Positions 29,766-52,937 of a stretch of DNA of 64,000 bases are shown here, in pieces. The notes under the pieces are model-generated. The model did not search any database. It had not been told where the DNA came from and saw only the letters and a list, made by a program, of their open reading frames with translations. Origin of the DNA: Mesonia sp. (GTDB taxonomy: Bacteria; Bacteroidota; Bacteroidia; Flavobacteriales; Flavobacteriaceae); the NCBI RefSeq assembly GCF_012964435.1, contig NZ_DTTX01000090.1. One strand, given 5' to 3'. Numbering within the stretch: the stretch's first letter is position 1; the number at the start of each line of letters is the position of its first letter. Both the position numbers and the translations under genes were made by a program.

Positions 29766-30524
29766 ATGAAAAACATTTTGATTTTACTTAGCTTAATCTG
29801 CTTATGTAGTTGCGCTTCAAAAAAAAATATTACCTATTTTCAAGATAGCGATAATTTACCTTCTGTACAAATTGACTCAATTTATCATCACCCAAAAATT
29901 CAGATTAATGATGTACTTAAAATAGATTTGACTGCATTGGAGCCTTCGAGCTTAATACCATTTCAGTTTGATAAACTTCCAACAAGCGGGATGACTCAAA
30001 TTGAACTTTTAAAGTTGCAGGGGTACTTAGTCAATAAAGATGGAGCTATTAATTATCCCGGGTTAGGCGCTGTAATGGTGAAAGGTAAAACAACTCAAGA
30101 AGTACAATCTATTTTGAAAAAAGAAATTGGAGAATTTGTGAAGGATGTTGAGGTGAAAGTAAGACTGGTAAACTTTAAATTTTCTGTGTTAGGTGAGGTT
30201 AAAATGCCAGGAACTTATACCGTAGCAGAAGAAACGGTAACCTTGCTTCAGGCCATTTCAATGGCTGGAGATTTAACCATACAGGGCGAAAGGAATAATA
30301 TATTGGTGATAAGACATAATAATGGAGTGATAACCTCTAAGAGAATAAATTTTACCAATACAGATTGGATGAATTCTGATTATTATTATTTGCAACAAAA
30401 TGATATGGTTTATGTGGAGCCTAACAGTGCTAAAGTTAAATCTAGTGGGTTTATAGGTAATGTGGGTAGTGTAGTATCTGTGATTTCTATTTTGTTAACG
30501 ACGGCTGTATTGATTTTTAGATAA
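29766..30524 (+). CDS. wza: Wza-like polysaccharide export outer-membrane lipoprotein
   Basis: Lipoprotein signal (LICLCSC). Poly_export/SLBB-like sequence. C-terminal hydrophobic helix. First gene of the operon. Confidence 0.85.
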   Translation: MKNILILLSLICLCSCASKKNITYFQDSDNLPSVQIDSIYHHPKIQINDVLKIDLTALEPSSLIPFQFDKLPTSGMTQIELLKLQGYLVNKDGAINYPGLGAVMVKGKTTQEVQSILKKEIGEFVKDVEVKVRLVNFKFSVLGEVKMPGTYTVAEETVTLLQAISMAGDLTIQGERNNILVIRHNNGVITSKRINFTNTDWMNSDYYYLQQNDMVYVEPNSAKVKSSGFIGNVGSVVSVISILLTTAVLIFR

Positions 30525-30528
30525 GATT

Positions 30529-32883
30529 ATGGTGAATTTAGAAGAATCTAAAGTAAATAATAGTGGTGACGGAGATAATATCAAGGTTGTAATACTAAGG
30601 TATCTAAGGTATTGGTATCTGTTTTTGTTTTTTATACTCGTTAGTGCTTGTCTTTCTTATTTTTATTTAAAATATCAAAAGTATGTTTATAGTACTTCAA
30701 CTAAAATTAAAATATTAGACGACAATGAGGGAGGTATAGATCTTTCTGGTTTAAATGGAGCTAAATCTCTTTTTAATTACAGTAAAGTAAATTTAGATAA
30801 TGAAATCCAGGTCTTTAAGTCAAGAAGGTTATTGAAATTAGTGATCGATGATCTAAACTTAAATACTTTTCACTACGAATCCGGAAACTTTAAAGATCAA
30901 GTGGTATTTGGAAAGTCATTGCCGTTTCAGGTTAATTGGATTAAAGAAGGTTCGTATGAAGTAAATGATTATCCTAAAATAAAATTGTTAGACAAGATAA
31001 AATTTAAATTTTTAGGAGCTACTTCTTCAGAAGGTAAAATAGTTAATTATGGTGACACTATTAACTATTTAAACTCAAAATTCACTATAACTCCAAATGT
31101 GAATTTTAAAGATTACAATAATCATAAAAATGACATATACTATTTTAAGTTTATAGATGATAAGTATTTAATTGATATTCTTTCAGAACAAATTAAAATA
31201 GAACCGGTTGGGGATCGTAGTGATATATTAAAAGCATCCATTAAAGGGACCAATAAAGAAAGAAACGAAGCAATATTAAATACCTTGGTGAGTCAATTTA
31301 ATTTAGATGGTATTGAAGATAAACGCCTAGTCTCTAAAAGAACAGAAGAGTTTGTTGAAGAAAGATTAAACTTCCTTGTGCAAGAGTTAGATACTGTAGA
31401 GTCTGATATTGTAGATTTTAAAGAAGATAATAATGTTGTAACTGTAGAGTCTAGCGTAGAACAATTATTTACTAAAGAAGCAACTTCAGAATCAGAACGT
31501 TTTGCAATAGCTACTCAAATAGAAGTTGCTAATGCTTTTAAAGAATTACTTGAAGAGGGGAATGAATATCAACTTTTGCCTGCTAATATTGGTATTGAGA
31601 GTGTTACAGTAAATGAATTAACCGCAGATTATAATGAAATTATCTCACAGCGAAATAGGCTCTTAGTATCATCTACAGAAAAAAACCCGATGATTGAGTC
31701 TTTAAATAATAAAATTGATAATATTAGGAATAATATAAGGTTAAGCTTAGATAATTATTTAAGGGGTTTAAATATTTCGTATAATAATTTGCAAAATCGT
31801 GAAGGTAATTTTAAAGGTCAAATAAGTAATCTTCCTAAAAAAGAAAAGGAACTGCGAAAAATAATAAGACAACAAGGAGTAAAAGAGAGGTTGTATTTAT
31901 TTTTATTACAAAAAAGAGAAGAAGCTGCTTTATCGTTTGCAGTTACGGCCCCAACCATCAAGGTTGTTGATTATGCTTTTACCAATGATGTGCCAATATC
32001 TCCTAGAAAAAGAGTTATTTTTTTAGGTTCAATAATTTTTGGATTTGTATTTCCTTTTGGGTTATTATACCTCAAATTTTTGCTGGATACAAATGTATCT
32101 AGTCGAGAAGAAATTGAAACTAAACTGCCAAGCATACCGATTTTAGGAGAAATACCTATGTTGAGTAATTCAGATGAAAAATTAATTCAGAAAAATGATA
32201 ACTCTGTTCTTGCAGAATCTTTTAGAATTTTGAGAACCAATCTATTTCATTATTATAAGAATACTTCGTCTTCTATTCAAGTAGTATATGTTACCTCTTC
32301 TATTAAAGGCGAAGGAAAAACTTTTACCGCTATTAATCTGGCAAGAACAATAGCTTCTTCTAATAAAAAAGTTTTACTGATTGGTGCAGATTTAAGAAAT
32401 CCACAAATACATACTTACTTTAATACAGATAGAAATATTTTAGGTCTTTCAGATTATATAGCTAAAAACAATGTAGATTATAAAGGCTATTTAAGAAAAC
32501 AAATGACCAATTTCGAAAATCTTGATATTATGTTTTCCGGTAGTGTGCCGCCTAATGCTGCAGAGCTTCTTTTAGAAGATAATTTTAAGGATCTATTGCA
32601 TAAAGCTAAACAAGACTATGATTATATTATTGTAGATACAGCTCCTACAATTTATGTTACAGATACCTTTTTAATTGCTAAAGAGGCAGACGTAACTTTA
32701 TATATGGTTAAAGAAGGTTTAACAGAAAAGAAACTACTTAAACACATAGAAGACGTTAATAGGTCTAAGAAAATTAATAATTTATCGTTAGTGTTAAATG
32801 GAGCGAGTCTAAATACTAATTTTGGTTATGGTTATGGTTATGTTTATACAGATAAGAAAAAACCATTCTACAAATTTTGGTAA
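30529..32883 (+). CDS. wzc: Wzc-like chain-length determinant / BY-tyrosine kinase
   Basis: Two TM helices flank a large coiled-coil periplasmic domain. Walker A SSIKGEGKTFTA, Walker B IIVDTAP. C-terminal Tyr cluster NFGYGYGYVYTD. Confidence 0.85.
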   Translation: MVNLEESKVNNSGDGDNIKVVILRYLRYWYLFLFFILVSACLSYFYLKYQKYVYSTSTKIKILDDNEGGIDLSGLNGAKSLFNYSKVNLDNEIQVFKSRRLLKLVIDDLNLNTFHYESGNFKDQVVFGKSLPFQVNWIKEGSYEVNDYPKIKLLDKIKFKFLGATSSEGKIVNYGDTINYLNSKFTITPNVNFKDYNNHKNDIYYFKFIDDKYLIDILSEQIKIEPVGDRSDILKASIKGTNKERNEAILNTLVSQFNLDGIEDKRLVSKRTEEFVEERLNFLVQELDTVESDIVDFKEDNNVVTVESSVEQLFTKEATSESERFAIATQIEVANAFKELLEEGNEYQLLPANIGIESVTVNELTADYNEIISQRNRLLVSSTEKNPMIESLNNKIDNIRNNIRLSLDNYLRGLNISYNNLQNREGNFKGQISNLPKKEKELRKIIRQQGVKERLYLFLLQKREEAALSFAVTAPTIKVVDYAFTNDVPISPRKRVIFLGSIIFGFVFPFGLLYLKFLLDTNVSSREEIETKLPSIPILGEIPMLSNSDEKLIQKNDNSVLAESFRILRTNLFHYYKNTSSSIQVVYVTSSIKGEGKTFTAINLARTIASSNKKVLLIGADLRNPQIHTYFNTDRNILGLSDYIAKNNVDYKGYLRKQMTNFENLDIMFSGSVPPNAAELLLEDNFKDLLHKAKQDYDYIIVDTAPTIYVTDTFLIAKEADVTLYMVKEGLTEKKLLKHIEDVNRSKKINNLSLVLNGASLNTNFGYGYGYVYTDKKKPFYKFW

Positions 32884-32910: not shown

Positions 32911-34350
32911 ATGAATAAAGAAATTGGTAAAAAAACCAAAATAGGACTTCTTTGGGATCTGTCTGGTTCTTTCTTTAGGCAATTTATAGCATTTTTTATA
33001 TCGGTAACCTTGGCCAGGTTGTTAGACCCTAAACAGTTTGGTATAATTGGTATGTCTTTAGTATTTGTTAGTATTTCTCAGGTGTTTGTAGATGTTGGTT
33101 TTACAAGCGGCTTAGTACAGCAAAAACACACTAAAAGTATAACTTATTCATCTGTTTTTTATATAAATATTCTCATCAGCTTTTTATTGTCAATGGCAAT
33201 TATTGTTTCAGCACCATTTATTGCTGAGTTTTATGAAATAGATAAAATAGAGAAAATACTTTATTTCTTATCAATTATTCCTCCGATAGCAGCTTTAGGT
33301 TTAGTGCATTCTGCTATTTTAACTAAAACATTAAATTTTAAAAGTTTAACCATTCGAGATATAGTAGCTACATTGGTTGGTGGCGTTGTAGGTATTGTGG
33401 CTGCGTTTAGCGAATTTGGAGTTTATAGTTTAGTTTTTCAACAAATATTTACAGTTTTAACCGGTACTATACTTCTTTGGTTCTCTACTAGTTGGCGACC
33501 TAAGTTAGAGTTTTCTTACAGAGAAACTAAAAGTCTTTTGAGGTATTCTAGTTATGTGTTTTTTGATCAGGCTTTACGTCAAGTTTCTAATAAAATAGAT
33601 ACAATATTTATTGGTAAGGTTTTTAGCCCATCTATATTAGGTTTTTATTCAAGAGCAGAATCTTTAAGATCTCAAGTACAAACCTATACTACAAATAGTT
33701 TACGGAAAGTTATTTTTCCTACTTTAAGTGCTTTACAAGATGATAAAGAAAACTTTGAGAGAATGTTTTTTAAAACATTTAATATTGTTTCTGGTCTAAC
33801 GATAATCTTAGTGGGACCAATTTACTTCCTTTCAGAAGAAATTATAATCATTTTATTAGGTGAAAAGTGGAGGCCGAGTATTATATTTTTTCAAATTTTA
33901 CTCTTTACAACATTAACTAGTCCACAAATAGGGATGATGGCTAAAGCAATGTTAGCAAAAGGATATTCTAAACTAAAGTTTAATGTAGGTATTGTACAAC
34001 GATTATTAAAACTATCTCCCATATTAATAGGTTTCTATTTTGGTATTATCGAGTTTTCAATAGCAGTTGTTGTCTCTTCAAGCTTAGTTTTTTTTCTTTT
34101 TGCTTTTATTTTAGATATAAAATTTCAGTTAAGTTTCTCTAAACAGTTTTGGGGTTTGTTAAAACCTATGTTTCCATTTTTAGTAGTTTTTCTATTAGAA
34201 AAATTTATATTTGATGAATTAAATAATTGGCTTTTAGCAATTTCATTTATTCTAATTCATATTTTATATATAAAACTAATTTCCCACGATAGTTTTTTAT
34301 TTGTTTACAATACAATCAAAAAAATTTACAATTCAAAATTTAAAAAATAA
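32911..34350 (+). CDS. wzx: Wzx-type oligosaccharide flippase (MOP superfamily)
   Basis: 479 aa, about 12-14 TM helices. Typical N-terminal LARLLDPKQFGIIGM string. Confidence 0.8.
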   Translation: MNKEIGKKTKIGLLWDLSGSFFRQFIAFFISVTLARLLDPKQFGIIGMSLVFVSISQVFVDVGFTSGLVQQKHTKSITYSSVFYINILISFLLSMAIIVSAPFIAEFYEIDKIEKILYFLSIIPPIAALGLVHSAILTKTLNFKSLTIRDIVATLVGGVVGIVAAFSEFGVYSLVFQQIFTVLTGTILLWFSTSWRPKLEFSYRETKSLLRYSSYVFFDQALRQVSNKIDTIFIGKVFSPSILGFYSRAESLRSQVQTYTTNSLRKVIFPTLSALQDDKENFERMFFKTFNIVSGLTIILVGPIYFLSEEIIIILLGEKWRPSIIFFQILLFTTLTSPQIGMMAKAMLAKGYSKLKFNVGIVQRLLKLSPILIGFYFGIIEFSIAVVVSSSLVFFLFAFILDIKFQLSFSKQFWGLLKPMFPFLVVFLLEKFIFDELNNWLLAISFILIHILYIKLISHDSFLFVYNTIKKIYNSKFKK

Positions 34351-35579
34351 TGGCTTTAAGTGTTACCAAAACAAAATTATCTGGTAAGGTTTTGCTTAGT
34401 GGTGCTAAAAATAGCTCATTACGACTTTTGGCAGCTTCGTTATTAACAGAAGAAACGGTAGAACTGCATAATTTTCCTAATGGTTTACTTGATGTTAAGG
34501 TGCATTTAAAAATGCTTGAAGCTTTAGGTAAATCTATAAAAGAAGGAGTACATACGGTGCAAATTTCTACGCAAAAGCAAATTAGTACAAAGTTAATTTG
34601 GAAAGAGCGGTCTATAAGAAATACACTTTTAATTTTAGGTGCATTAGTCTCTAGATATGGTGAAGGTAAAGTGCCATTGCCGGGAGGTTGTAAATTAGGA
34701 GAAAGAAAATATGACCTGCACGTAATGCTTTTAGAAAAATTAGGAGCAGAAGTATGGGAGGAAGAAGGTTATTTGTGCGCTAAGTCTAAAGCAGAAAAGT
34801 TAATTGGTGCAGAGATACATTTACCATTACGCTCTACGGGAGCCACAGAAAATACGATTATTGCGAGTAGTTTAGCTGTAGGAGAAACAATTTTATATAA
34901 TCCTCATATAAGGCCAGAGATTATAGATTTAATAACAATGTTAAATAAAATGGGTGCTCAAATTACGGTATATGGCCAACAGGCTATTAAAATTAAAGGA
35001 GTCGATGTTTTAAAAGCTGTAAAACATGAGGTGATACCGGACAATATGGAGGCATTAACTTGGGCTATAGGATCTGTGATTACTAATGGTGAAATTGAGA
35101 TTGAAAACTTTCCTTATCAACATTTAGAGGTTCCTTTAGTTTATTTACGAGAAAGCGGAATGAAGTTTTATAGAGGAGAATCGAGTTTAATTGTTAAGGG
35201 TGGGCAACCATATCCCGTAGAGATTAGTACAGGCCCTTATCCTGGTATAAATTCTGATATGCAACCACTGTTTGCTGTTTATGGAGCTATGTCTTTAGGA
35301 GAAACAAAAATTGTAGACTTAAGGTTTCCTGGAAGATATGCTTATGCCGACGAATTATCTAAAATAGGAGTGAATTCTAAAGTAGTAGGAGATATGTTGG
35401 TTATAAATGGTGGAAATAAAATTACTGGAGGTAGAGTAAAGGCATTAGATCTTAGAGCAGGGATCGCATTACTTTTAGCGGGTATGACCTCTGAAGAGGA
35501 GGTGATCATAGAAGATGAGTGGCAGATCTATAGAGGTTATGAAAATCTCGAAGAGAAGATTTCTAATTTAACGTCGTAA
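34350..35579 (+). CDS. murA: UDP-N-acetylglucosamine 1-carboxyvinyltransferase paralogue (MurA-like)
   Basis: LSGAKNSSLRLLAASLL; catalytic-loop PLPGGCKLGERKYDLH with Cys; SDMQPLF; YRGYENLEEK. TAATG overlap with wzx. Confidence 0.85.
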   Translation: MALSVTKTKLSGKVLLSGAKNSSLRLLAASLLTEETVELHNFPNGLLDVKVHLKMLEALGKSIKEGVHTVQISTQKQISTKLIWKERSIRNTLLILGALVSRYGEGKVPLPGGCKLGERKYDLHVMLLEKLGAEVWEEEGYLCAKSKAEKLIGAEIHLPLRSTGATENTIIASSLAVGETILYNPHIRPEIIDLITMLNKMGAQITVYGQQAIKIKGVDVLKAVKHEVIPDNMEALTWAIGSVITNGEIEIENFPYQHLEVPLVYLRESGMKFYRGESSLIVKGGQPYPVEISTGPYPGINSDMQPLFAVYGAMSLGETKIVDLRFPGRYAYADELSKIGVNSKVVGDMLVINGGNKITGGRVKALDLRAGIALLLAGMTSEEEVIIEDEWQIYRGYENLEEKISNLTS

Positions 35580-36109
35580 TGTTAACAATTTTAAATATAA
35601 TTAAGGACGATTTAAATTCATTATCAAGAAATAGTTTTAAAAATAAGATTTTAAATTTGTTCTTTAATAGGTCATTTGCTCTAACTTTAAACTATAGGTT
35701 AGGTAATCATTTTCAGAAAAAAAGAAATTTTCTAAATAACCTGTTCATATTAATCTTAAAAAAAAAGCAACTTAAAAATTTTGGTTGCGATATATCCTAT
35801 ACAGCTGAAATTGGAAAAAATATATCTTTTCCTCATCCAATAGGTATTGTAATAGGTAATAATGTGAAAATTAAAGATAATGTGAAAATATGGCAAAATG
35901 TCACAATTGGTAGCAAAGGAAAATTACAAAAGGAATATCCTGTAATAAATTCAAATGTGAAAATTTTCACTTCTGCCCAAGTTATAGGAAATATTTACAT
36001 TGGAGATAACACTATAATAGGAGCATCGTCTTTGGTAATAACAGACCTACCGAGCAATAGTATAGCATATGGCGTTCCTGCTAAATTTAAAATAAATGAA
36101 AATTCCTAA
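35579..36109 (+). CDS. hexapeptide-repeat O-acetyltransferase (CysE/WcaB-like)
   Basis: Left-handed beta-helix repeats (IGNNVKIKDNVKIWQNVTIG; IGDNTIIGASSLV). TAATG overlap with murA. Confidence 0.7.
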   Translation: MLTILNIIKDDLNSLSRNSFKNKILNLFFNRSFALTLNYRLGNHFQKKRNFLNNLFILILKKKQLKNFGCDISYTAEIGKNISFPHPIGIVIGNNVKIKDNVKIWQNVTIGSKGKLQKEYPVINSNVKIFTSAQVIGNIYIGDNTIIGASSLVITDLPSNSIAYGVPAKFKINENS

Positions 36110-36953
36110 TTTTATACTTGGTGGTATCATGAAAAGTGGTACAACTTTTCTTCATAACTTATTAATTAATCATCCACAAGTCAAAGTTTTGAAAAGAGAT
36201 ATGTCTTTTTCGTACTTTGATGATGATAGAGTATTTAAAAATGGTGAAAATTGGGATGTTAATCTTTTTTCTGAAATTAAAAAGGATTTAAAATCTAATG
36301 AAATTGTAGGTCAAACTTCCGCCGACTGTGCTTTTAACCCTCAAAGTGTACAGCGTATTATGGATTATAACCCTAATACCAAATTGATTTTTGTTTTAAG
36401 ACATCCTATAGATCGTGCTTACTCTTTATATTGGCATCAATACGGTATGGGAAGAGAACATAAGTCTTTTGAAAAAGCAATCGATGTTGAAGCTAATAAG
36501 ATCAAAAAATCTTACTATAATTTTAAAAATTTTTCTTATTTAGAAAGAAGTAAGTACTATCAACAATTTCAGGAAGTAAAAAAAATAGTTCCTGAAGCAA
36601 ATTTGCTAATTTTAGACTTTGAATCTTTAACAAAAAATACTTTAAAGTCGATTAACAGTGTTCTCGATTTCTTAGAAATCGATAAAATCTCAGATATTGA
36701 AGAGTTAGGCTACTCTAATTTACCAAGAAATAGAGCTTTGATACCAAAATATAAATTTATGGTCAAATTATCTCATTTCTTACAAAAATTTGGTTTTGTA
36801 TCCTTAGGGAGAAAGGCTTTAAATATGACAAGAGAAGAGGTTAGACCTCCTAAAATGAATCTAGAAACTCGTAAACAGCTTGAGCAAAAATTAGCAAAAG
36901 ATATTCAATTTTATAATGAAGTGAAGCTGAACTTTAATAAGAAAATAAATTAA
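36096..36953 (+). CDS. PAPS-dependent sulfotransferase
   Basis: 5'-PSB loop GGIMKSGTTFLHN and 3'-PB motif FVLRHPIDRAYSLYWH. Confidence 0.8.
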   Translation: MKIPNFILGGIMKSGTTFLHNLLINHPQVKVLKRDMSFSYFDDDRVFKNGENWDVNLFSEIKKDLKSNEIVGQTSADCAFNPQSVQRIMDYNPNTKLIFVLRHPIDRAYSLYWHQYGMGREHKSFEKAIDVEANKIKKSYYNFKNFSYLERSKYYQQFQEVKKIVPEANLLILDFESLTKNTLKSINSVLDFLEIDKISDIEELGYSNLPRNRALIPKYKFMVKLSHFLQKFGFVSLGRKALNMTREEVRPPKMNLETRKQLEQKLAKDIQFYNEVKLNFNKKIN

Positions 36954-36958
36954 GTACT

Positions 36959-37813
36959 TTGAAGATCATCGAAAATTTTGACTTAACCCCTTGTAATTCA
37001 TATCGTATTAAAGCGAAATGTAGTAAAGCTTATTTTCCTGAAAACGAAAAAGATTTTCAAACGATATTTAAGCAAAAATTAAATAAAATTATGATAGGTG
37101 GTGGCTACAACATTATTCTGTCTAAAGAATTTTACGAAGAAGAATTTGTAGTGATTGGTGAGACCTTTGCAAATATAGAATTAGAGAGTGACACTATAAT
37201 TTCTTGTGAGGCGGGTGTAAATACAAAAACGTTTAGTGAATTTGCTTTAAATAAAAAGCTATCTGGGGCAGAGATCTTTTATGATATACCTAGTTCTATA
37301 GGTGGCGCAGTAGTGATGAATGCCGGTGCTAGTGGTGAAGAAATTAAAGATATTCTAATAAGAGTTAGGTATTTAGATTTAGATGATGGTAAAATTAAAG
37401 AAATAAGTAATAAAGAAATTGGGTTTGAGTATAGAAACAGTCTTTTTCAAAAAGAAACTAATAAAGTTGTTTTAAAAGCCTGGTTCGATTTAAAAAGTTC
37501 TACAGCAAAGCAAATTAAAGAAAAAATGGATGCTGTAAAAGATGCTCGTTGGGCAAAGCAACCCAAAAATTATCCTAATGCCGGGAGCGTTTTTAAGCGT
37601 CCAAAAGGTTTTTTTGTGGGTCCAATGATCCAGGAGTTGGGTTTAAAAGGGTATACCATTGGTGATGCGCAAATATCTAAAAAGCACGGAGGTTTTATTG
37701 TGAATTTAGGTAATGCAAATGGAGGCGATATCATTCAGATAATAAAAACAGTACAGGATAAGGTTAAAGAGCGATTTAATGTAGATTTAGAAGTCGAACA
37801 ACGCATAATATAA
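36959..37813 (+). CDS. murB: UDP-N-acetylenolpyruvoylglucosamine reductase paralogue (short-type MurB)
   Basis: GGGYNIIL, GGAVVMNAGA, EYRNSLF, PNAGSVFKRP, KKHGGFIVN. TTG start. Confidence 0.85.
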   Translation: MKIIENFDLTPCNSYRIKAKCSKAYFPENEKDFQTIFKQKLNKIMIGGGYNIILSKEFYEEEFVVIGETFANIELESDTIISCEAGVNTKTFSEFALNKKLSGAEIFYDIPSSIGGAVVMNAGASGEEIKDILIRVRYLDLDDGKIKEISNKEIGFEYRNSLFQKETNKVVLKAWFDLKSSTAKQIKEKMDAVKDARWAKQPKNYPNAGSVFKRPKGFFVGPMIQELGLKGYTIGDAQISKKHGGFIVNLGNANGGDIIQIIKTVQDKVKERFNVDLEVEQRII

Positions 37814-37818
37814 TTAAC

Positions 37819-38979
37819 ATGAAAATTTTATTTGTTATCTCAAGCGATGGTGGTAATGCAGTTGGAGGTCATTATAATTCATTAGATCAGGTAAGTCGCG
37901 AGGTTTCGAAAATACACGAAGTTAAAATTGTAAGTTTTGGCACAACTATAAGTCCGTTGATAGCTAAAAACCCTAACTTCGCTAGGCACTTTCAATCTAA
38001 ACTCAATTTACTGCCACTTTTAAAACAAAAAGACAATTTTTCAAAATTTGTTAAGAATTTTCAACCAGATATTATTCATGTATTTGACGCAGAAGCCCTA
38101 AACTGTATTTTGTTTTTAGATTTATTTTCTAAAATACCAATTGTACTGAATAAATGTGGAGGGCCAAACCCTAAAAGAAAAAATTATTTTCATGCAGATG
38201 CGATCGTAGTATTTAGTAAAGAAAATCAAGCGTGGTATTTGCAAAACCCAAATTACGAAGAAAATGATATCTTTTTAATTCCCAACAGAGTTAGAAAATT
38301 AGAACCCCTTGCAGAAGATCAGAGATTAGAAATAAAACCTATTAATAAAACAACTTTTTTAAGAGTTAGTCGTTTAGGTGGAGCTTACGAAAAGACACTT
38401 TTAGATAGTTATAATTTAATCGAAAAAATAAATAAAAAAAATCCTGCAGAATTAATTGTTGTGGGGAGAGTGCAAAACAAGTCTCGCTTCGATATGTTAA
38501 AACAAGAGGCAGTTAAAAGAAATATTCCGGTAAGATTTATAACCGATGAACGGGCATCCAGAGGTAGTGACTTTCTTTATTTAGCCGATTTTGTAATAGG
38601 TACCGGCAGAAGTTTTATGGAGGCAGCATCTTTAAGTAAGCCTTGTCTCACTCCGGCAAAAAATGCAGACGAACCCATCTTAGTAGATAAGCAAAATTTC
38701 GAACATTTTTTTAAGACAAATTTTTCAGAAAGAAATTTTTCAGATCAAGATTCTTTAGAGAATAATATTTCTAAGATAGAGTCTGCTATAGAAAATAAGG
38801 AGGACTACAAGCGTTTATCAGAAGAATCAAAACTAATTTTTGATGAATATTTTGGTACTCAGAAGATACAAGAGAAGTATAACTCTGTCTATCAATACTT
38901 ACAAAGAAAAAAATTGAATAGAAGAAAGATAATTCTAAAGAATTTACCTTATTTGGTGAAATTTTCTTTAAATAGATAA
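37819..38979 (+). CDS. putative glycosyltransferase (GT-B-like)
   Basis: Context only, plus a weak GT4-like C-terminal segment (IGTGRSFMEAASLSKPCL). No strong motif. Confidence 0.5.
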   Translation: MKILFVISSDGGNAVGGHYNSLDQVSREVSKIHEVKIVSFGTTISPLIAKNPNFARHFQSKLNLLPLLKQKDNFSKFVKNFQPDIIHVFDAEALNCILFLDLFSKIPIVLNKCGGPNPKRKNYFHADAIVVFSKENQAWYLQNPNYEENDIFLIPNRVRKLEPLAEDQRLEIKPINKTTFLRVSRLGGAYEKTLLDSYNLIEKINKKNPAELIVVGRVQNKSRFDMLKQEAVKRNIPVRFITDERASRGSDFLYLADFVIGTGRSFMEAASLSKPCLTPAKNADEPILVDKQNFEHFFKTNFSERNFSDQDSLENNISKIESAIENKEDYKRLSEESKLIFDEYFGTQKIQEKYNSVYQYLQRKKLNRRKIILKNLPYLVKFSLNR

Positions 38980-38983
38980 TTTA

Positions 38984-40279
38984 ATGTACCAAAAGCAAAC
39001 CAAAGGATTGTCAATTTTACTACTCTTAATTTCCCCAATATTAGGTCTATTTTTTGGTGTAAAAAATTTAACTTGGAAAAATAGAAAGCTTATAATTCTA
39101 CTTTTTTCTTGTATCTATGGTTCGTTGATCACTTATGAGGATGGAGCAGATGCAGGAAGGTATATTGACATGGTCGATAGGTACAATCTAATGTCTTTTT
39201 CAGATTTTATAGATCATATATTTAGTATCCTAAATTTAGAATTGGTTTACGGCTATCCTACAGACCTCTATGTTCATTTTTTGGCTTATTTTGTTGGTTC
39301 TTTAATTGGTTTTTCAGCTCTATTTTATCCGATTGTTGGTTTTATATACGGTTATTTTTATGCAGGTGCCTTAGAGAAGGTTTTAAAGTTTCAAAAGAAA
39401 AGACAAATAACTATTTTTTTAATATTTACGGTTGCCTTATTTGTAATACATAGAAGTTTTGAAAATATGCAAACAGTTAGAAGCTGGACGGGTATGTGGG
39501 TTCTTTTTAATGGTGTACTTGGTTATTTTCAAACAAAAAATAAAAAATATCTTTTCTTAATAGCTATCACACCTTTTTTTCATTTTGCATATTTAATATT
39601 GGCGTTGCCATCAATCGCGGCTTTATTTGCAAATAGAGTGAATGTTAAAGTTATAGTTGTGGTTTATTTATTATCTTTTTTTGGAACTATTGGTGGTGAT
39701 CAAGTAATCAATCTGTCTAAACAAAACGAATTAGCAGAAAGAAAGGTGAAATCTTATTATAGAGAAGATAAATATGGTAATGAAATTGATGTAATTGAAG
39801 AAAGGATTGACTCATCTGAAAGTGTTTGGTATGCAAAATATGGGAAAACAGATTCAGTTTATTGGGGAGGAAATGCTTTTTCGTTATTTTTGATTGCTTT
39901 CGGGTTTTATAGAAAACGTATGACCATTGCAGAAAGTGGAGTATTTACTGCTGGTATTTTGACAGCTGTTCTTGCGAATTTAGGTTCTTTTGCTTACGGA
40001 TTTTATAGTAGGACAATGGCATGTGCAGTGACGTTTATGTTAGCAACTGTTGTAATGATCGCGATTAGAGATGGTTTTAGAGATAAAGAACTCAAGAACT
40101 ATAGAAACGTACAGTTTTTTAAATGGTTTTGTGTCATTCTATTTATACCCAAAATAATTTACTTTATAGCAAATTTTTTAGTGATGACAAGTGCATTTAA
40201 TTTAATCTTTCCGTTTATGTGTTGGTTTAATCCGGATCTAAATTTTTCAATTCGAGAATTTTTAGGTGTTTTTATATGA
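38984..40279 (+). CDS. polytopic membrane protein, probable Wzy/EpsG-type polysaccharide polymerase
   Basis: 431 aa, about 10-12 TM helices, no soluble domains. It is the only polymerase candidate in a Wzx-containing locus. Confidence 0.55.
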   Translation: MYQKQTKGLSILLLLISPILGLFFGVKNLTWKNRKLIILLFSCIYGSLITYEDGADAGRYIDMVDRYNLMSFSDFIDHIFSILNLELVYGYPTDLYVHFLAYFVGSLIGFSALFYPIVGFIYGYFYAGALEKVLKFQKKRQITIFLIFTVALFVIHRSFENMQTVRSWTGMWVLFNGVLGYFQTKNKKYLFLIAITPFFHFAYLILALPSIAALFANRVNVKVIVVVYLLSFFGTIGGDQVINLSKQNELAERKVKSYYREDKYGNEIDVIEERIDSSESVWYAKYGKTDSVYWGGNAFSLFLIAFGFYRKRMTIAESGVFTAGILTAVLANLGSFAYGFYSRTMACAVTFMLATVVMIAIRDGFRDKELKNYRNVQFFKWFCVILFIPKIIYFIANFLVMTSAFNLIFPFMCWFNPDLNFSIREFLGVFI

Positions 40280-41370
40280 TTGATAAATTAAAAAAAATTT
40301 TAATAAATCTTCCGGGTTGGCGAACTAACTCAAAAGTAATAGTAATTGAAAGTGATGATTGGGGAAGCATAAGATCATCATCTAATAAAGCTTTAGAAGA
40401 TTTAAAAAATAGCGGCATTAAAGTTGATAATTGCAGTTATATGCAAAATGATGCAATAGCTTCAAATGAAGATTTAGAATTGTTATTTAATATTCTTGCA
40501 AAAAAAAATACTCCCAAAATAACAGCTAATTTTTTAACTTCTAATCCAGATTTTAATAAGATAAAAGAAAGTGGCTTTAACAGATATTATAGTGAATCTA
40601 TTTTAGAAACCGTAAAGCGATATCCAAAACATGATAATGCAAAAAATTTATGGCTTGAGGGTAAGAATCAAGGTTTTTTTTACCCTCAGTTGCATGGTCG
40701 TGAACACTTAAATATTCCCAGGTGGTTACAAGATCTAAAAGATGGTAATGAAGAAACTTTACTTGCTTTTAAGCATAAAATGTTTGGTGTAAGCGCACAT
40801 ATTGTACAAAAACGACGTGCTAGTTATCAAGCTGCTTTAGATGGGAATTTTTCGGTAGATCTTCACGATAAGAAAAGCATTATAAAAGAGGCAGTTCAAG
40901 AATTTAATCAAATTTTTGGCTTTAAACCAGAAAGCTTTATTGCTCCAAATTATATTTGGGATTCTCTAGTAGAAAAGGCACTGGCTCAAGAAAAAGTTAT
41001 GTTTTTGCAGGGTACGCATATACAACGATTACCTAGAGGGTTAGGAGAAAAACTTCAATATAGAAGGCACGCTTTAGGAGATGTTAATGAGTATGATCAA
41101 AAATACTTGGTTAGAAATGCTTTTTTTGAACCATCATCAAATAAAGATAAAGATTGGGTAGACAGTTGCTTGTCTGAAATTAAAATTGCATTTTTAATGC
41201 GAAAGCCCGCAATTATATCAAGCCACCGAGTAAACTTCGTTGGGTTTCTTAATCAAAAAAATAGAGATCAAAACTTAAAATTATTTGAAGAGCTAATTAA
41301 GAGAATAAATAAAAATTGGCCAGGTGTACATTATTTAACCACTGCAGAATTAACCAAACTAATCGGATGA
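40276..41370 (+). CDS. uncharacterised protein with deacetylase-like DDWG / HGREH motifs (paralogue of 47931-49052)
   Basis: Strings shared with its paralogue: ESDDWGSIR, NPDF.KIKE, HGREHLN, RNAFFEPSS, DWVDSCL, KPA.IS.HRVN. The DD and H..EH pattern recalls the NodB/CE4 metal site. Confidence 0.45.
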   Translation: MIDKLKKILINLPGWRTNSKVIVIESDDWGSIRSSSNKALEDLKNSGIKVDNCSYMQNDAIASNEDLELLFNILAKKNTPKITANFLTSNPDFNKIKESGFNRYYSESILETVKRYPKHDNAKNLWLEGKNQGFFYPQLHGREHLNIPRWLQDLKDGNEETLLAFKHKMFGVSAHIVQKRRASYQAALDGNFSVDLHDKKSIIKEAVQEFNQIFGFKPESFIAPNYIWDSLVEKALAQEKVMFLQGTHIQRLPRGLGEKLQYRRHALGDVNEYDQKYLVRNAFFEPSSNKDKDWVDSCLSEIKIAFLMRKPAIISSHRVNFVGFLNQKNRDQNLKLFEELIKRINKNWPGVHYLTTAELTKLIG

Positions 41371-42317
41371 AAATATTAATCACAGGTGACTTTTGCCCAA
41401 TAGGAAGAGCAACAAATAAATCTGCAGAGCAAGTTTTTGGTGAAGAAACCTTAGAGTTGATCAACTCTGCAGACCTAGCGATTACCAATTTAGAATGCCC
41501 GCTAACCAATAGTGAGCAAAAAATTTCGAAGTCTGGACCCAACTTAAAAGTAGAACCCTTCTCAATAAATCTTTTAAAAGGGGCAGGTTTTAATTTTGTA
41601 ACATTAGCTAATAATCACATATTAGATTATGGTTGTGAGGGTTTAATAGATACCCTTGATGTTTTAAATTCAAATGAAATAGGTTATGTAGGTGCAGGGA
41701 AAGTAGATGATGATATTTCAACACAATATTTTAAGTTTTTGAAAAAAACTCTAGCAATAATAAACGTTTGCGAGAATGAATGGTCTACAGAGCCAAACTT
41801 AGGTTATAAAGCTTATGGTCTCGATGAAATCGAAATGTATAATCAAATCACTAAGTTGAAAAATGAAGTAGATTATATTTTAGTAGTACATCACGGCGGA
41901 AATGAATTTTACAACCTTCCGGCTCCAAGATTAAAGAAGCTTTTTAGATTTTTTGTAGATATAGGAGCAGATGCGGTTATTAATCATCATACTCATTGTA
42001 TAAGTGGAATGGAGATTTATAAAAATTCTCCTATATTTTATTCATTAGGAAATTTTGTTTTTGATAATCAAAATTATGAATCTACAGATTGGAATTTTGG
42101 CTTAGGAATAATGCTAAATTTCAATGATGCTAAATTGAGTTATGAAACCTATGTTTTTGAACAATTTGGAAAAGAAGCTAAAGTTGACCTTTTAGGCTCT
42201 AAACACGAATATCACCAGAAAATTTTAGATCTAAATAAAAAGGTTCAAGACGATAAGAAATTAGATGAATCTTATAAGGCGTTTATAAAAAATAAAAGTA
42301 AATTATATAATTCTTAG
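41367..42317 (+). CDS. CapA/PGA_cap-family metallophosphoesterase-like protein (no TM anchor)
   Basis: ILITGDFCP, ITNLECPLT, LANNHILDYG, VVHHGGNEF, DAVINHHTHC, YSLGNFVFD. ATGA overlap with the upstream gene makes 41367 the likely start. The ORF-track 41316 extension is not supported. Confidence 0.75.
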   Translation: MKILITGDFCPIGRATNKSAEQVFGEETLELINSADLAITNLECPLTNSEQKISKSGPNLKVEPFSINLLKGAGFNFVTLANNHILDYGCEGLIDTLDVLNSNEIGYVGAGKVDDDISTQYFKFLKKTLAIINVCENEWSTEPNLGYKAYGLDEIEMYNQITKLKNEVDYILVVHHGGNEFYNLPAPRLKKLFRFFVDIGADAVINHHTHCISGMEIYKNSPIFYSLGNFVFDNQNYESTDWNFGLGIMLNFNDAKLSYETYVFEQFGKEAKVDLLGSKHEYHQKILDLNKKVQDDKKLDESYKAFIKNKSKLYNS

Positions 42318-42436
42318 ATTAGCTCTCAAAAATAGAAACATATTGCCTTCTTCATGGAATTCAAAAAAAAGATTGATTTTAAGAAATTTAATAACTTGTG
42401 AATCCCACCGAGATGTAGTAAAGAAATTACTTAATA

Positions 42437-43468
42437 ATGAAAATAGCAATTCATAATAGTAAACAAGGTTTTCATCCTCGATGGATAGATTATTGTAAAG
42501 AAAACAATATAGAATATAAATTAGTAGATTGTTATTCTAATCTTGTGATAGATCAATTAAAAGGTTGTAGTAGTTTATTTTGGCATTATAATCATCTAAA
42601 TCCAAAAGATATGGTCATTGCGAAGCAAATACTTTTTGCTTTAGAACATTCTGGATTTAAAGTTTTTCCTAATTTTAAAACTGCTTGGCATTTTGATGAT
42701 AAAATTGGCCAAAAATATCTTTTAAAAGCCTTAAACTTACCATTAGTGCCATCTTATGTCTTTTTTGATCAAAAATCAGCTTTTGAATGGATTCGTAATA
42801 CTAGCTTTCCTAAAGTTTTTAAGCTAAGAAAGGGCGCCGGCTCTGCAAATGTAAGATTGATTAATAATTCTAAACAAGCTAAAAAAATAATACGTCACTC
42901 TTTTAATAAAGGGTTTAATCTTTACAATTCTTGGACAGAATTAAAAGAAAGAATTTATAAGTATCAAAATGGTAAAAGTTCTACATCAAATCTTTTAAAA
43001 GGATTTGCAAGATGCTTTTATCCTCCAAAATTCTCAAAAATTAGCGGTAAGGAGATAGGTTATGTTTACTTTCAAGAGTTTATCCCTAATAATGATAGTG
43101 ATACTAGAATTATAATAATTGATAATAAAGCTTTTGCTTTAAAGCGAATGGTTAGAAAAGGTGACTTTAGAGCTTCAGGTAGTGGAGAATTTTATTATGA
43201 GAGAAGCAACTTCGATTTATCCTGTGTGCGTTTAGCTTTTGAAGCAAATAAGAAAATTCAATCACAATGCATAGCATACGATTTCATTTTTGATGAAGAC
43301 AAAAAACCATTAATTGTAGAGATAAGCTACGGTTTTTCTCCTAGCGGATATGATAAGTGTCCAGGTTATTGGGATCAAAATTTACAATGGTACGAAACGA
43401 GCTTTAATCCTTATGGTTGGATGATAAATACATTAATATTAGGAGGGGAGAGTAAAAATAAGATATGA
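42437..43468 (+). CDS. ATP-grasp-fold ligase
   Basis: FPKVFKLRKGAGSANVRLI, VYFQEFIPNNDSDTRIIIIDNKAF, GDFRASGSGEFYYE, PLIVEISY. These fit the ATP-grasp (RimK-like) pattern. Confidence 0.6.
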   Translation: MKIAIHNSKQGFHPRWIDYCKENNIEYKLVDCYSNLVIDQLKGCSSLFWHYNHLNPKDMVIAKQILFALEHSGFKVFPNFKTAWHFDDKIGQKYLLKALNLPLVPSYVFFDQKSAFEWIRNTSFPKVFKLRKGAGSANVRLINNSKQAKKIIRHSFNKGFNLYNSWTELKERIYKYQNGKSSTSNLLKGFARCFYPPKFSKISGKEIGYVYFQEFIPNNDSDTRIIIIDNKAFALKRMVRKGDFRASGSGEFYYERSNFDLSCVRLAFEANKKIQSQCIAYDFIFDEDKKPLIVEISYGFSPSGYDKCPGYWDQNLQWYETSFNPYGWMINTLILGGESKNKI

Positions 43469-44025
43469 TTCAAAATTTCAAAGACTTAAAATATTATTTA
43501 AAAGAAGATAGAAGAGCATTGAATGTTAAAAGAGGAGGTGTTATAGGATATCTAAAAGCAATTGTCTACCTCAATTTTACATATTTATTTCAAGTCAACC
43601 TTAGAATAGCAGAATATTTTTCAAACAATAATGGATTAATAAATAAAATTTTATCACTTGGTTTTAAATATAAATATAATATTTTAGGAGTAATATGTGG
43701 CTTTTCGATACCTATAAATACATTTGGTCCTGGCTTAGCGATAGTTCATCGAGGGACCATAGTTGTTCATCATAATGCAAGAATAGGTGCTAACTGTAGA
43801 ATACACGTTTGTACTAATATAGGGGCTACAGGAGGGAGTGATAAAGCTCCAATTATTGGTGAAAATGTATATATTGGACCGGGGGTTAAAATTTACGGTA
43901 ATATTAGAATTGCCAATAGTGTAGCCATAGCAGCTAATTCTGCAGTAAATAAATCTATTTTTAAAGAAAATGTGACTGTAGGTGGTGTCCCCGCTAGCAT
44001 AATTAGAGATGTGAATGCAAACTAA
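43465..44025 (+). CDS. hexapeptide-repeat O-acetyltransferase (serine acetyltransferase-like)
   Basis: CysE/WcaB-like N-terminal helix region, then hexapeptide repeats (IGANCRIHVCTNIG; IGENVYIGPGVKIYGNIRIANSVAIAANS). Confidence 0.75.
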   Translation: MIQNFKDLKYYLKEDRRALNVKRGGVIGYLKAIVYLNFTYLFQVNLRIAEYFSNNNGLINKILSLGFKYKYNILGVICGFSIPINTFGPGLAIVHRGTIVVHHNARIGANCRIHVCTNIGATGGSDKAPIIGENVYIGPGVKIYGNIRIANSVAIAANSAVNKSIFKENVTVGGVPASIIRDVNAN

Positions 44026-44058
44026 AAAGTAATCTTTAATAAGAAAAATATAAATACT

Positions 44059-44760
44059 TTGAGTTTAAAAGTATATACCAAACAGAATGTTCAGCTTTAT
44101 AAAATTTGGTTTTTTGTAAAGCAAAATTTATTTAAGCAAATGCTTAAAGTAAGGTTGCCATATAAAAATGACGATTTTTATTTAGATGGTTATCCTAGAA
44201 GTGGTAATACATTTTGTGTTAGTTTTATTAAGCGCTTTTATCCCACTAAAAACTTTTCACACCATTTGCATTCAATTGCTGGTTTTAAAATCGCCTTAAA
44301 ATTTAACCTTAAGTGTTTTGCATTATTTAGAGATCCATTAGATGCTGTTGCTTCATTAGCTATAATGCAAAATTTCTATGGTAAATGGAACAAAGAATCA
44401 AATTCTTTATTATCTGATAATTTAAACGAATACATAAGTTATTATCAATATTTAATTTTAAATAAAAACAAAATTGAGTTTATAGAATTTGACGCTATTA
44501 TTAACAGTATAACTTTAAAAGAATTTTTTGAGAAAAATATTGAGAGCAATAATATCACAAGTGAAGATTTAAATAACTTCGAAATTGATTTTAAAAGCCA
44601 TCAAAAAACAAAACCATCTCTGAGGTCAAGTTCTCCCAATAAGACTCGTAATTTAGAAAAAGAAAATGTTAAGAAATTAATACGAGCTTTACCTAATTAT
44701 CCCCAAGCATTAAAAGTGTTTAACGAGATGAAAGAAATTGTAGAAAGTGAGCATAAGTAA
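44059..44760 (+). CDS. sulfotransferase-like protein
   Basis: 5'-PSB-like loop GYPRSGNTF and 3'-PB-like FALFRDPLDAVASL. TTG start in the ORF track; ATG at 44140 is the alternative. Confidence 0.6.
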   Translation: MSLKVYTKQNVQLYKIWFFVKQNLFKQMLKVRLPYKNDDFYLDGYPRSGNTFCVSFIKRFYPTKNFSHHLHSIAGFKIALKFNLKCFALFRDPLDAVASLAIMQNFYGKWNKESNSLLSDNLNEYISYYQYLILNKNKIEFIEFDAIINSITLKEFFEKNIESNNITSEDLNNFEIDFKSHQKTKPSLRSSSPNKTRNLEKENVKKLIRALPNYPQALKVFNEMKEIVESEHK

Positions 44761-45643
44761 TACTGTAATTTTATTTGGTACAGGAAGATCAGGTTCAACT
44801 GTATTTATGGAGGCTTTTTTTAGGCATCCAGATATTGCTTATTTTTCAAATTATTTAGAAAAAAAACCCGATTTACTTCAACTTAACTATTTTAGATATG
44901 TGTTTGATAATGATATCTATAGGGTTTTTGGAAAAAAAAAGCAACTTAATAATAGATCTACTATTGAAAGGCTAATATTTAAACCTTCAGAAGCATATCC
45001 TGTATGGTCTTATTTATGCAATAATGAAGTTGATTTTTCAAGAGATTTTTTATATCAAACAAAGCCGTCAGATTTATTAAAACAAAGTATTTGTACCTAT
45101 TCTAAGCAGGTAGTAAATATTCAAAATAAAAATAGGCTAGCTATTAAAATTACCGGTCCCGGAAGAATATATTTTTTAAATCAAATATTTCCTCAAGCCA
45201 AAAATATATGGCTTAAAAGAAAATTTTTACCGACACTTAAATCATTTTTAGAAGTAAGCTTCTGGCAAAATAGAAAATCTGATACGCCTTGGTGGGGGGG
45301 AGTTTATAACGATCAAGAAAAAGAAGTTTTAACTAAGTATGCAGGTGACCCTATAATTTTTACAGCCTTGCAGATTAAGAAAATCATAGATTTAATTGAA
45401 GCAGAAATAAGAGATAATGATTTTGAAGTATTTTCAATAAACTATGAAGATTTGGTGATGAAACCAACCAAAACCTTACAAGATGCATTAGATTTTGCCG
45501 GCTTAGAAAAAGATTCAAGCTGTTTTGACTATCTAAATAGTAATAAGCTAGTAAATAGAAATAAAGAAATTGAAAATTACTTTACTAATAATAAGATAGA
45601 TGAACTCAATAACTTGTTAGGTATAGATGTTACTCAAATTTAA
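44747..45643 (+). CDS. sulfotransferase-like protein (Sulfotransfer_3-like)
   Basis: N-terminal loop ILFGTGRSGSTVF. The second motif is weak. GTG start overlapping the previous gene. Confidence 0.5.
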   Translation: MSISNTVILFGTGRSGSTVFMEAFFRHPDIAYFSNYLEKKPDLLQLNYFRYVFDNDIYRVFGKKKQLNNRSTIERLIFKPSEAYPVWSYLCNNEVDFSRDFLYQTKPSDLLKQSICTYSKQVVNIQNKNRLAIKITGPGRIYFLNQIFPQAKNIWLKRKFLPTLKSFLEVSFWQNRKSDTPWWGGVYNDQEKEVLTKYAGDPIIFTALQIKKIIDLIEAEIRDNDFEVFSINYEDLVMKPTKTLQDALDFAGLEKDSSCFDYLNSNKLVNRNKEIENYFTNNKIDELNNLLGIDVTQI

Positions 45644-45652
45644 ATAAAAGTC

Positions 45653-46741
45653 TTGAAAAAAAAACTAAAAATACTATGCGCAATTCAATCTTTGCAGGTT
45701 GGTGGGATGGAAAGGGTAATGTCTCAATTGATCAATGAGTTTTCAAAAAAACCAGATGTTGAACTTCATTTGTTGCTCTATGGTATTTCACGTGAAGTCT
45801 TTTATACTATTCCGAAGAATGTGAAAATTCATCAACCTTCCTTTGTATTTAATAATAAATTCAGAGTTTATTTTACGATTAAAACACTTTTTTTTATTAG
45901 AAAAACCGTGAAAAAATTATCGCCAGAAACTATTTTGAATTTTGGGGAATATTGGAATAATTTTTTCTTATTAGCAGTTATTGGTCTTCGCTTTCCGGTA
46001 TTTATTTCAGATAGATGTCAGCCTAATAAAAGTCTAGGTAGATTCCACGATCTATTAAGAAAATTTTTATACCCAAAATCTACTGGAGTTATTGCGCAAA
46101 CAGAAATGGCTAAAAGCATTTTTTTAAAACTTTATAAGCATAATAATATTAAGGTAATCGGAAACCCTATTAATTTGATGCCTAAAGAAGATGATAAACC
46201 AAGAAAGAACATCGTTTTAATAGTGGGGCGTTTAATAAAGACTAAACATCACAAAGAGCTTATAAATCTTTTTGTCAAAATTAATAAACCCAATTGGGAA
46301 TTACATATTATTGGTGGTAACGCTTTAAATCAAACTAATTTTGAAAGTTTGAATGCTTTAGTGAAAAATTTAAATGCAGAGAATACCGTAAAATTATTAG
46401 GCTCGAAAGCAGAAATTTTTAAATATTATCATCAAAGTAAGATTTTTGCATTTACATCTAGCTCAGAAGGTTTTCCGAATGTTATTGGTGAGGCAATGTC
46501 AGCGGGACTGCCAGTTATTGCGTTTGATTGTATTGCAGGTCCTTCAGAAATGATTAAGCATCATGAAAACGGCAGTTTAGTTGAAGTTAGAAATTTTACA
46601 GAATTTCAAAAAGAATTAGCAGCTTATATGGACTCAGAGATGTTAATTAGAAAAAGAGGAGATAAGGCAAAAAAAACGATACAAGAATTTAACGCTAGTA
46701 AAATTGCCGATAAGTATTTTCATTTTATAACCAATATCTAA
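45653..46741 (+). CDS. GT4-family glycosyltransferase
   Basis: EX7E region SSSEGFPNVIGEAMSAGLPVIAFD. TTG start. Confidence 0.8.
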   Translation: MKKKLKILCAIQSLQVGGMERVMSQLINEFSKKPDVELHLLLYGISREVFYTIPKNVKIHQPSFVFNNKFRVYFTIKTLFFIRKTVKKLSPETILNFGEYWNNFFLLAVIGLRFPVFISDRCQPNKSLGRFHDLLRKFLYPKSTGVIAQTEMAKSIFLKLYKHNNIKVIGNPINLMPKEDDKPRKNIVLIVGRLIKTKHHKELINLFVKINKPNWELHIIGGNALNQTNFESLNALVKNLNAENTVKLLGSKAEIFKYYHQSKIFAFTSSSEGFPNVIGEAMSAGLPVIAFDCIAGPSEMIKHHENGSLVEVRNFTEFQKELAAYMDSEMLIRKRGDKAKKTIQEFNASKIADKYFHFITNI

Positions 46742-49995: not shown

Positions 49996-49999
49996 ATAA

Positions 50000-51154: not shown

Positions 51155-51155
51155 A

Positions 51156-52310: not shown

Positions 52311-52319
52311 ACTTATTGT

Positions 52320-52928: not shown

Positions 52929-52937
52929 TTTTAATAG

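Follow-up and report, generated by a model that had tools for sequence, protein, structure and literature searches.

The window analysed here, a 64,000-nucleotide stretch of DNA from Mesonia sp. (NCBI RefSeq assembly GCF_012964435.1, contig NZ_DTTX01000090.1), was found to carry a same-strand cluster of 24 genes (29766-53591) of the wza-wzc-wzx type, the fourth and seventh genes of which encode members of the MurA and MurB families. MurA transfers the enolpyruvyl group of phosphoenolpyruvate (PEP) to O-3 of UDP-N-acetylglucosamine (UDP-GlcNAc), and MurB, with FAD and NADPH, reduces the product to the D-lactyl ether. Comparison of both proteins and of their gene neighbourhoods makes it likely that the pair in this cluster is a horizontally mobile, acquired accessory copy, which would make a UDP-activated lactyl-ether N-acetylhexosamine (HexNAc), UDP-N-acetylmuramic acid (UDP-MurNAc) or an isomer, for a Wzx/Wzy-dependent, Wza/Wzc-exported polysaccharide. 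The features of the cluster are as follows (GT4, glycosyltransferase family 4).

29766..30524, + strand: wza-type outer-membrane polysaccharide export protein, which opens the operon (Pfam Poly_export 1.6e-14, SLBB_2)
30529..32883, + strand: wzc-type chain-length regulator/tyrosine autokinase (Pfam Wzz, GNVR and AAA_31, a P-loop kinase)
32911..34350, + strand: Wzx-type (MOP family) flippase (Polysacc_synt_3 5e-79)
34350..35579, + strand: accessory MurA-family enolpyruvyl (1-carboxyvinyl) transferase with a Cys-type active site, 409 aa (PF00275 5e-71)
35579..36109, + strand: hexapeptide-repeat (CysE/EpsC/WcaB-like) O-acetyltransferase (Hexapep 1.4e-10; NF041874 121.9 bits, under its cut-off of 150)
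36096..36953, + strand: sulfotransferase (Sulfotransfer_1/3, ~5e-15)
36959..37813, + strand: accessory MurB-family (type II, short) FAD-dependent enolpyruvyl reductase, 284 aa, TTG start (MurB_C 6e-33 and FAD_binding_4)
37819..38979, + strand: divergent GT4-like (GT-B) glycosyltransferase, 386 aa, candidate lactyl-sugar transferase (weak Glyco_transf_4 and Glycos_transf_1 matches)
38984..40279, + strand: multi-pass membrane protein, candidate Wzy polymerase (EpsG family E=5.9e-5, under the gathering score)
40276..53591, + strand: remainder of the cluster (Pfam and NCBIfam matches)

An earlier sequence-only reading of the window had placed the two open reading frames at 34350-35579 and 36959-37813, as genes 4 and 7 of an operon opening wza-wzc-wzx with only an acetyltransferase and a sulfotransferase gene between them, and both the frames and the gene order were confirmed. 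The same reading had described the junctions as TAATG overlaps. This holds at wzx/murA-like, where the wzx stop codon overlaps the murA-like start, and at murA-like/acetyltransferase; the acetyltransferase and sulfotransferase genes overlap by 14 nt, and gaps of 5 nt separate the sulfotransferase from the murB-like gene and the latter from the gene that follows. The genes expected of a Wzx/Wzy-dependent, Wza/Wzc-exported polysaccharide were found together on one strand, the assignment of wzy being weak. A scan for sigma-70 promoters and terminators gave a result at chance level.

The MurA-like protein matched PF00275 (EPSP_synthase) over residues 7-403, with the two-domain fold over its full length, and passed the cut-off of NCBIfam NF006873, a UDP-GlcNAc 1-carboxyvinyltransferase subfamily (379.6 bits, cut-off 297); against NF009470 it scored 313 bits and did not reach the cut-off of 552. 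Its best match in the Protein Data Bank (PDB) was MurA 6q03 (E=1e-76, residues 8-407), and the closest solved structures are bona fide MurA. The motifs PLPGGCKLGERKYDLH, SDMQP and YRGYE, cited in the sequence-only reading as hallmarks of MurA, were all found in the protein. The active site was examined in an alignment of the window protein and 79 family members (80 family sequences) with E. coli MurA, whose numbering is used throughout. K22, N23, R91, C115, R120, H125, S162, G164, D231, D305, F328, R331, D369 and R371 are invariant in 80/80 sequences, and D123 and R397 are each kept in 79/80, both being present in the window protein. The catalytic residues are intact, and the enzyme is predicted to be active.

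The same is predicted of the MurB-like protein, which carries MurB_C (6e-33) and FAD_binding_4 (1.4e-11) domains. It passed the cut-off of TIGR00179 clearly (204.9 bits, cut-off 144.5) and that of NF010480 marginally (264.6 bits, cut-off 259). The best PDB matches were the short type II MurB enzymes of Listeria and Staphylococcus aureus (3tx1 and 1hsk), in line with the short-type hallmarks GGGYNIIL, GGAVVMNAGA, PNAGSVFKRP and HGGFIVN that had been noted from the sequence and are present. R159, S210 and E280 align to Arg188, Ser238 and Glu308 of S. aureus MurB, the catalytic Arg/Ser/Glu, and these three residues, together with Y158, H243 and N249, are invariant in 72 MurB-like family sequences; the catalytic residues are thus intact here as well.

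Both proteins differ sharply from the housekeeping enzymes of the lineage. In Riemerella anatipestifer (Flavobacteriales) the housekeeping murA encodes 435 aa and lies between a DUF4290 gene and miaA (locus L087:2968-4275). The window MurA-like protein is 29% identical to this enzyme, 28% to that of Prevotella and 36% to E. coli MurA, and its gene has a wzx/acetyltransferase context instead of DUF4290/miaA. Within the best 120 matches to Riemerella MurA (Riemerella, Chryseobacterium, Elizabethkingia, Cloacibacterium and other Weeksellaceae), identity is 87-100%; all of these matches are from Weeksellaceae, and none of the named species that bear the accessory genes is among them. The position of Cys115 is occupied by Asp in 120/120 of these listed housekeeping enzymes and by Cys in 238/239 proteins of the accessory family. 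Low identity, gene context and the Cys in place of Asp are thus all at odds with orthology to the Bacteroidota housekeeping murA. Likewise, the Bacteroidota housekeeping MurB (~339 aa; Riemerella, Phocaeicola, Parabacteroides, Prevotella) is only 23-26% identical to the window MurB-like protein, an identity that speaks against orthology to this long type, and Listeria MurB is 40% identical. Scans of viral contigs did not find the Bacteroidota housekeeping murA.

Compared with housekeeping MurA (EC 2.5.1.7) and MurB (EC 1.3.1.98), the window pair has the same folds and domain families, keeps MurA K22/C115/R120/D305/R371/R397 and the MurB Arg/Ser/Glu, and would be expected to perform the same chemistry, namely enolpyruvyl transfer from PEP followed by NADPH/FAD reduction to a D-lactyl ether. 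It differs in forming a separate clade that is not orthologous to the Bacteroidota genes, in combining a Cys-type loop with a short type II MurB (against an Asp-type MurA in Flavobacteriales and a long MurB in the lineage), and in its place in a polysaccharide operon, its patchy distribution and its apparent horizontal transfer. These comparisons make a strong case that the window pair does not represent the cell-wall enzymes of the lineage.

The distribution of the family points in the same direction. In a protein search only a few Flavobacterium species yielded homologues of 70-82% identity, whereas a housekeeping orthologue would be expected in hundreds of them; homologues from Algoriphagus, Flavilitoribacter, Sphingobacterium, Empedobacter, Lunatibacter and Imperialibacter came next. 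When 185,579 species were scanned, each represented by one genome, 376 stretches in at least 6 phyla matched, a number that is a lower bound since exact peptide seeds were used. Identity among the best 80 of the 376 ranges from 82% down to 58%, and beyond Bacteroidota these 80 include Psychrobacter, Aliidiomarina, Photobacterium, Citrifermentans, Alkalispirochaeta, Verrucomicrobiota, Trueperaceae, Balneolaceae and Micavibrio. Only three of the 50%-identity representatives that stand for 1.8 billion proteins group with the family, the next ones dropping fast to the generic MurA level of 35-40%. In a neighbour-joining (NJ) tree of 87 sequences, the kind of check that the sequence-only reading had proposed, the family and these three representatives form a clade in 30/30 bootstraps that leaves out the MurA of E. 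coli and of Riemerella as well as 55 other 50%-identity representatives. Sequences from the gammaproteobacterial Psychrobacter and Aliidiomarina are nested among those of Bacteroidota in this clade. The accessory genes also occur in complete genomes, for example those of Flavobacterium litorale, F. arcticum, Pontibacter sp. MBLB2868 (CP196710), Cyclobacterium xiamenense ac3 (CP159481), Psychrobacter sp. DM4 (CP195536) and P. sanguinis.

Copies were also found on plasmids of Qingshengfaniella alkalisoli (L085) and Agrobacterium sp. MA01 (L086), each adjoining a murB-like gene and glycosyltransferase genes, and on secondary replicons of 2.3-2.5 Mb in Rhizobium gallicum and R. etli. These alphaproteobacterial MurA-like/MurB-like pairs, at 56-59% identity, are annotated as cell-wall enzymes with peptidoglycan Gene Ontology (GO) terms. 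Three contigs binned outside Bacteroidota, in a metagenome-assembled genome (MAG) labelled Pseudanabaena (L006), in one labelled Methylotenera (L010) and in a Desulforapulum MAG (L048), hold genes 67-81% identical to the Flavobacterium-type set; the first two (76-81%) are probably mis-binned contigs rather than transfers. One Flavobacteriaceae MAG (ERR2762102_binner13_Refined_30) has two separate copies of the gene set on different contigs, 73% (L009) and 72% (L018) identical to the window protein.

Gene neighbourhoods were counted in 82 loci of the MurA-like family. In 71 of them the MurA-like gene has a MurB-like gene no more than 4 kb away, and 4 of the 11 exceptions are contigs that end early. 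The MurB-like proteins are of two kinds, one of ~285 aa that is 50-66% identical to that of the window and another of ~315-330 aa, 27-34% identical, in more distant loci. The hexapeptide acetyltransferase has a homologue beginning within 0.4 kb after the murA-like gene in 37/82 loci. Homologues of the 386-aa GT4-like protein start within 0.3 kb after the MurB-like gene in 37 loci and are found within 8 kb in 56/82; 14 of 22 orthologues of this protein match Glyco_trans_4_2 (best E 1.8e-8), and its best PDB match is the GT4 enzyme WlaC (E=0.017). Many related loci have a wzx flippase gene between the acetyltransferase and murB-like genes, and wza, wzc, wzx and glycosyltransferase neighbours are common around MurA-like genes, which lie mostly in polysaccharide loci. 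From these counts the recurring unit consists of the murA-like gene, the acetyltransferase, often wzx, the murB-like gene and the GT4-like transferase. A homologue of the sulfotransferase occurs near murA-like in only 5/82 loci, all close relatives, and this gene is a lineage-specific insert outside the conserved unit. The suggestion that the acetyltransferase and the sulfotransferase act on the same residue is therefore plausible for the former, given its position directly after murA-like in the 37 loci, and unsupported for the latter.

On this basis the following route is proposed. The MurA-like enzyme would take the enolpyruvyl group from PEP and place it on a UDP-HexNAc hydroxyl, in the simplest case O-3 of UDP-GlcNAc, and the MurB-like flavoenzyme, using NADPH, would reduce this group to a lactyl (1-carboxyethyl) ether, giving UDP-MurNAc or a close isomer; substrate and regio- and stereochemistry are those that we infer from the two families. 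The conserved GT4-like glycosyltransferase encoded directly downstream may then add the acidic sugar to the undecaprenyl-linked repeat unit, and the adjacent hexapeptide acetyltransferase probably O-acetylates the lactyl sugar, after which the unit would be flipped by Wzx, polymerised and exported. The claim that these are non-housekeeping copies feeding MurNAc or a related carboxyethyl sugar into a polysaccharide, put forward in the sequence-only reading, is thus supported by concordant indirect evidence: the distance from the housekeeping types, the separate, patchily distributed clade, the linkage to a MurB-like gene in polysaccharide contexts and on plasmids, and the invariant catalytic residues.

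Sugars of this kind are known in glycans outside peptidoglycan. MurNAc occurs in the lipooligosaccharide core of Psychrobacter arcticus 273-4 (PMC4515632) and in the capsule of Vibrio vulnificus ATCC 27562 (PMC7247339), where it serves a marine or cold-adapted Gram-negative bacterium as an ordinary building block, the role also proposed here; Psychrobacter species carry the accessory family, but the two papers give no genetic assignment. E. coli O69, O150, O124, O146 and O58 contain lactyl ethers of GlcNAc, Glc and Rha, with lactyl-GlcNAc in O69 and O150, and the O124 gene wfeP is credited with making UDP-GlcLA (PMC7685785). For Shigella boydii 17, a paper cited in PMC5643014 reports the confirmation of two glucolactilic acid genes. 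These O-antigen systems (PMC7685785; work cited in PMC5643014) resemble the window locus in having dedicated genes for a nucleotide-activated lactyl-ether sugar within a Wzx/Wzy cluster, but they concern other sugars and positions, such as 4-O-lactyl Glc in O124. When 5,426 E. coli genomes were searched at the nucleotide level (blastn) with members of the MurA-like family, nothing was found, wfeP-type genes not having been compared as proteins.

That the MurA fold can take another acceptor is illustrated by NikO, the enolpyruvyl-UMP transferase of nikkomycin biosynthesis (PMC6801904; PDB 4fqd, matched at 2e-24), a paralogue that is far more distant from the window protein and acts on UMP. A MurB-like reductase in a polysaccharide context adjoining a glycosyltransferase gene was also found on plasmid pAES7 of Paracoccus aestuarii, but its partner there is a fused PF04230 polysaccharide pyruvyl transferase domain, not a MurA-family enzyme. 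This 845-aa protein (L135:2492-5029; PF04230, FAD_binding_4 and MurB_C), which also adjoins glf, may represent a MurA-independent route to lactyl ethers. No paper assigning an accessory MurA/MurB pair to a polysaccharide was found in full-text searches of the open-access literature.

Several points weigh against the proposed function or limit it. The MurA-like protein falls under the murA equivalog cut-off (TIGR01072, 371.2 against 392.7 bits), and the family has the invariant or near-invariant changes W95L, P121K, V122Y, V161R, V163T, E188R and V327R, at positions which we take, from MurA structures, to line the nucleotide-sugar acceptor pocket. Seven loci with full 10-kb flanks hold a MurA-like gene without a MurB-like gene (L044, L048, L053, L057, L061, L073 and L084), the acetyltransferase, wzx and the GT4-like gene being still present in L044, L057 and L061. 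Neither P. arcticus nor V. vulnificus was among the top 120 matches of a profile built on gammaproteobacterial members, and no family member could be linked to a strain whose lactyl-sugar glycan has been solved; this locus and its relatives are known from sequence. The presence of housekeeping murA and murB elsewhere in this organism, and with it the coexistence of both types in one genome, is presumed.

The alternative that best survives keeps the chemistry and changes the product, which would be a 4-O isomer or an (S)-lactyl isomer (isomuramic acid) of GlcNAc, or a lactyl ether of another UDP-sugar such as GalNAc, Glc or a uronic acid; we regard it as possible and rather improbable. The missed cut-off and the family-invariant changes adjoining the UDP-GlcNAc site indicate that the acceptor or the position may differ from that in MurNAc, the seven acceptor-side positions having changed while the PEP-side residues were kept. 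Many different glycolactilic acids occur in natural glycans (PMC7685785, PMC10609480), and a dedicated pair would be superfluous if the ordinary UDP-MurNAc pool served. However, Asn23, Arg91, Arg120, Asp123, Ser162, Gly164, Asp305 and Phe328 are all retained, and the MurB-like protein passes the murB equivalog cut-offs. The seven loci without a MurB-like gene are most easily explained if the MurB of the host reduces the intermediate, which would then be enolpyruvyl-UDP-GlcNAc, so that the acceptor-side changes and the failed equivalog test pull one way on the identity of the product and the MurB-less loci the other.

An extended form of the same idea, offered only tentatively, is that the murA-like, O-acetyltransferase, wzx, murB-like and GT4-like genes form a self-contained mobile lactyl-sugar cassette whose transferase has been re-tuned by K121, Y122, R161, T163, R188 and R327 and which makes an O-acetylated lactyl ether other than MurNAc. 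If so, it would be the genetic basis, so far missing, of many carboxyethyl sugars that have been reported from marine Bacteroidota and Proteobacteria, and fosfomycin would become a selective chemical switch for the modification of the polysaccharide, since the housekeeping MurA of Flavobacteriales is Asp-type and the accessory enzyme Cys-type.

A conditional back-up supply of UDP-MurNAc for peptidoglycan appears very unlikely. The window enzymes look catalytically competent, and Firmicutes do maintain a pair of MurA paralogues for peptidoglycan (Listeria, Bacillus and Staphylococcus each gave two places per record); these, MurA2/MurZ, belong to the same family as the window enzyme but serve peptidoglycan and lie outside polysaccharide loci. 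The accessory genes, on the other hand, are steadily embedded among genes for wzx, the acetyltransferase and the glycosyltransferase, to which they are joined tightly or by overlaps, and appear to have crossed phyla along with polysaccharide genes; of the neighbouring genes examined, none was recognised as a Mur ligase or MraY gene. Finally, that the pair is the organism's only murA and murB, placed by chance in an exopolysaccharide operon, is barely credible: the window covers only part of the genome, and annotation in the style of the Prokaryotic Genome Annotation Pipeline (PGAP) calls all family members MurA or MurB with cell-wall GO terms, but identities of 28-29% (MurA) and 23-26% (MurB) to Bacteroidota housekeeping proteins that are themselves highly conserved within the order, the absence of the family from most species of its genera, 60-67% identity to copies in Proteobacteria that own a murA, and plasmid-borne copies all speak against it.

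The remainder of the cluster (40276..53591) encodes two paralogues of unknown family, a PGA_cap protein, an ATP-grasp protein, two further acetyltransferases, two further sulfotransferase-like proteins, three GT4 enzymes, fcl and gmd, a small initiating phosphoglycosyl transferase (52320-52928) and a PglD/NeuD-like N-acetyltransferase. There are three sulfotransferase-like genes in all (36096-36953, 44059-44760 and 44747-45643), the middle one without a Pfam match but with a P-loop-like YPRSGNTF motif. Together with gmd/fcl (49042-51154) they suggest a sulfated, fucose-containing polysaccharide; no gene for the synthesis of 3'-phosphoadenosine 5'-phosphosulfate was identified among the annotated genes of the cluster. 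The two paralogues (364 and 373 aa, 42% identical; in the regions 40276-43468 and 47931-49052) match nothing in Pfam, NCBIfam or PDB. Single-sequence AlphaFold models of the 364-aa protein and of the GT4-like protein reached a predicted local distance difference test score (pLDDT) of 37.2 and 39.6, respectively, and were unusable. The paralogues recur with the PGA_cap/MslH-like protein and the RimK-like ATP-grasp ligase in metagenome loci without MurA-like or MurB-like genes (L090, L098, L101, L102, L127 and L128), and the set looks like a separate module. A role of the ATP-grasp ligase and the PGA_cap protein in amidating the lactyl carboxylate was considered and rejected, as 46 metagenome loci with homologues of the ligase hold no MurA-like or MurB-like gene. 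A gene just upstream of the polysaccharide locus (24379-27645, - strand) encodes a protein of 1088 aa that combines an ice-binding-like adhesive domain with PKD domains and a C-terminal sorting domain of type IX secretion; it fits a Bacteroidota origin of the scaffold, which comes from a hydrothermal-vent metagenome (ENA ERZ23486352, 261 kb).

The result is a sound functional re-annotation of a widespread mobile cassette. It leaves the understanding of the chemistry unchanged, as the principle was to be expected from the homologies and MurNAc and glycolactilic acids were already known in glycans other than peptidoglycan. Its bearing is on annotation, where the automatic assignment of such pairs as cell-wall MurA and MurB with peptidoglycan GO terms misstates their role and hides a marker for lactyl-ether sugars in capsules, exopolysaccharides and O antigens. 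In cells with an Asp-type housekeeping MurA the accessory Cys-type enzyme would, from this difference at position 115, be the sole MurA alkylated by fosfomycin, and in Flavobacteriales the antibiotic could thus be used as a probe of the role of the accessory enzyme. Recognition of the cassette would allow acidic, lactate-bearing glycans to be predicted from sequence in several hundred species and would provide candidate genes for structures that are already known chemically.

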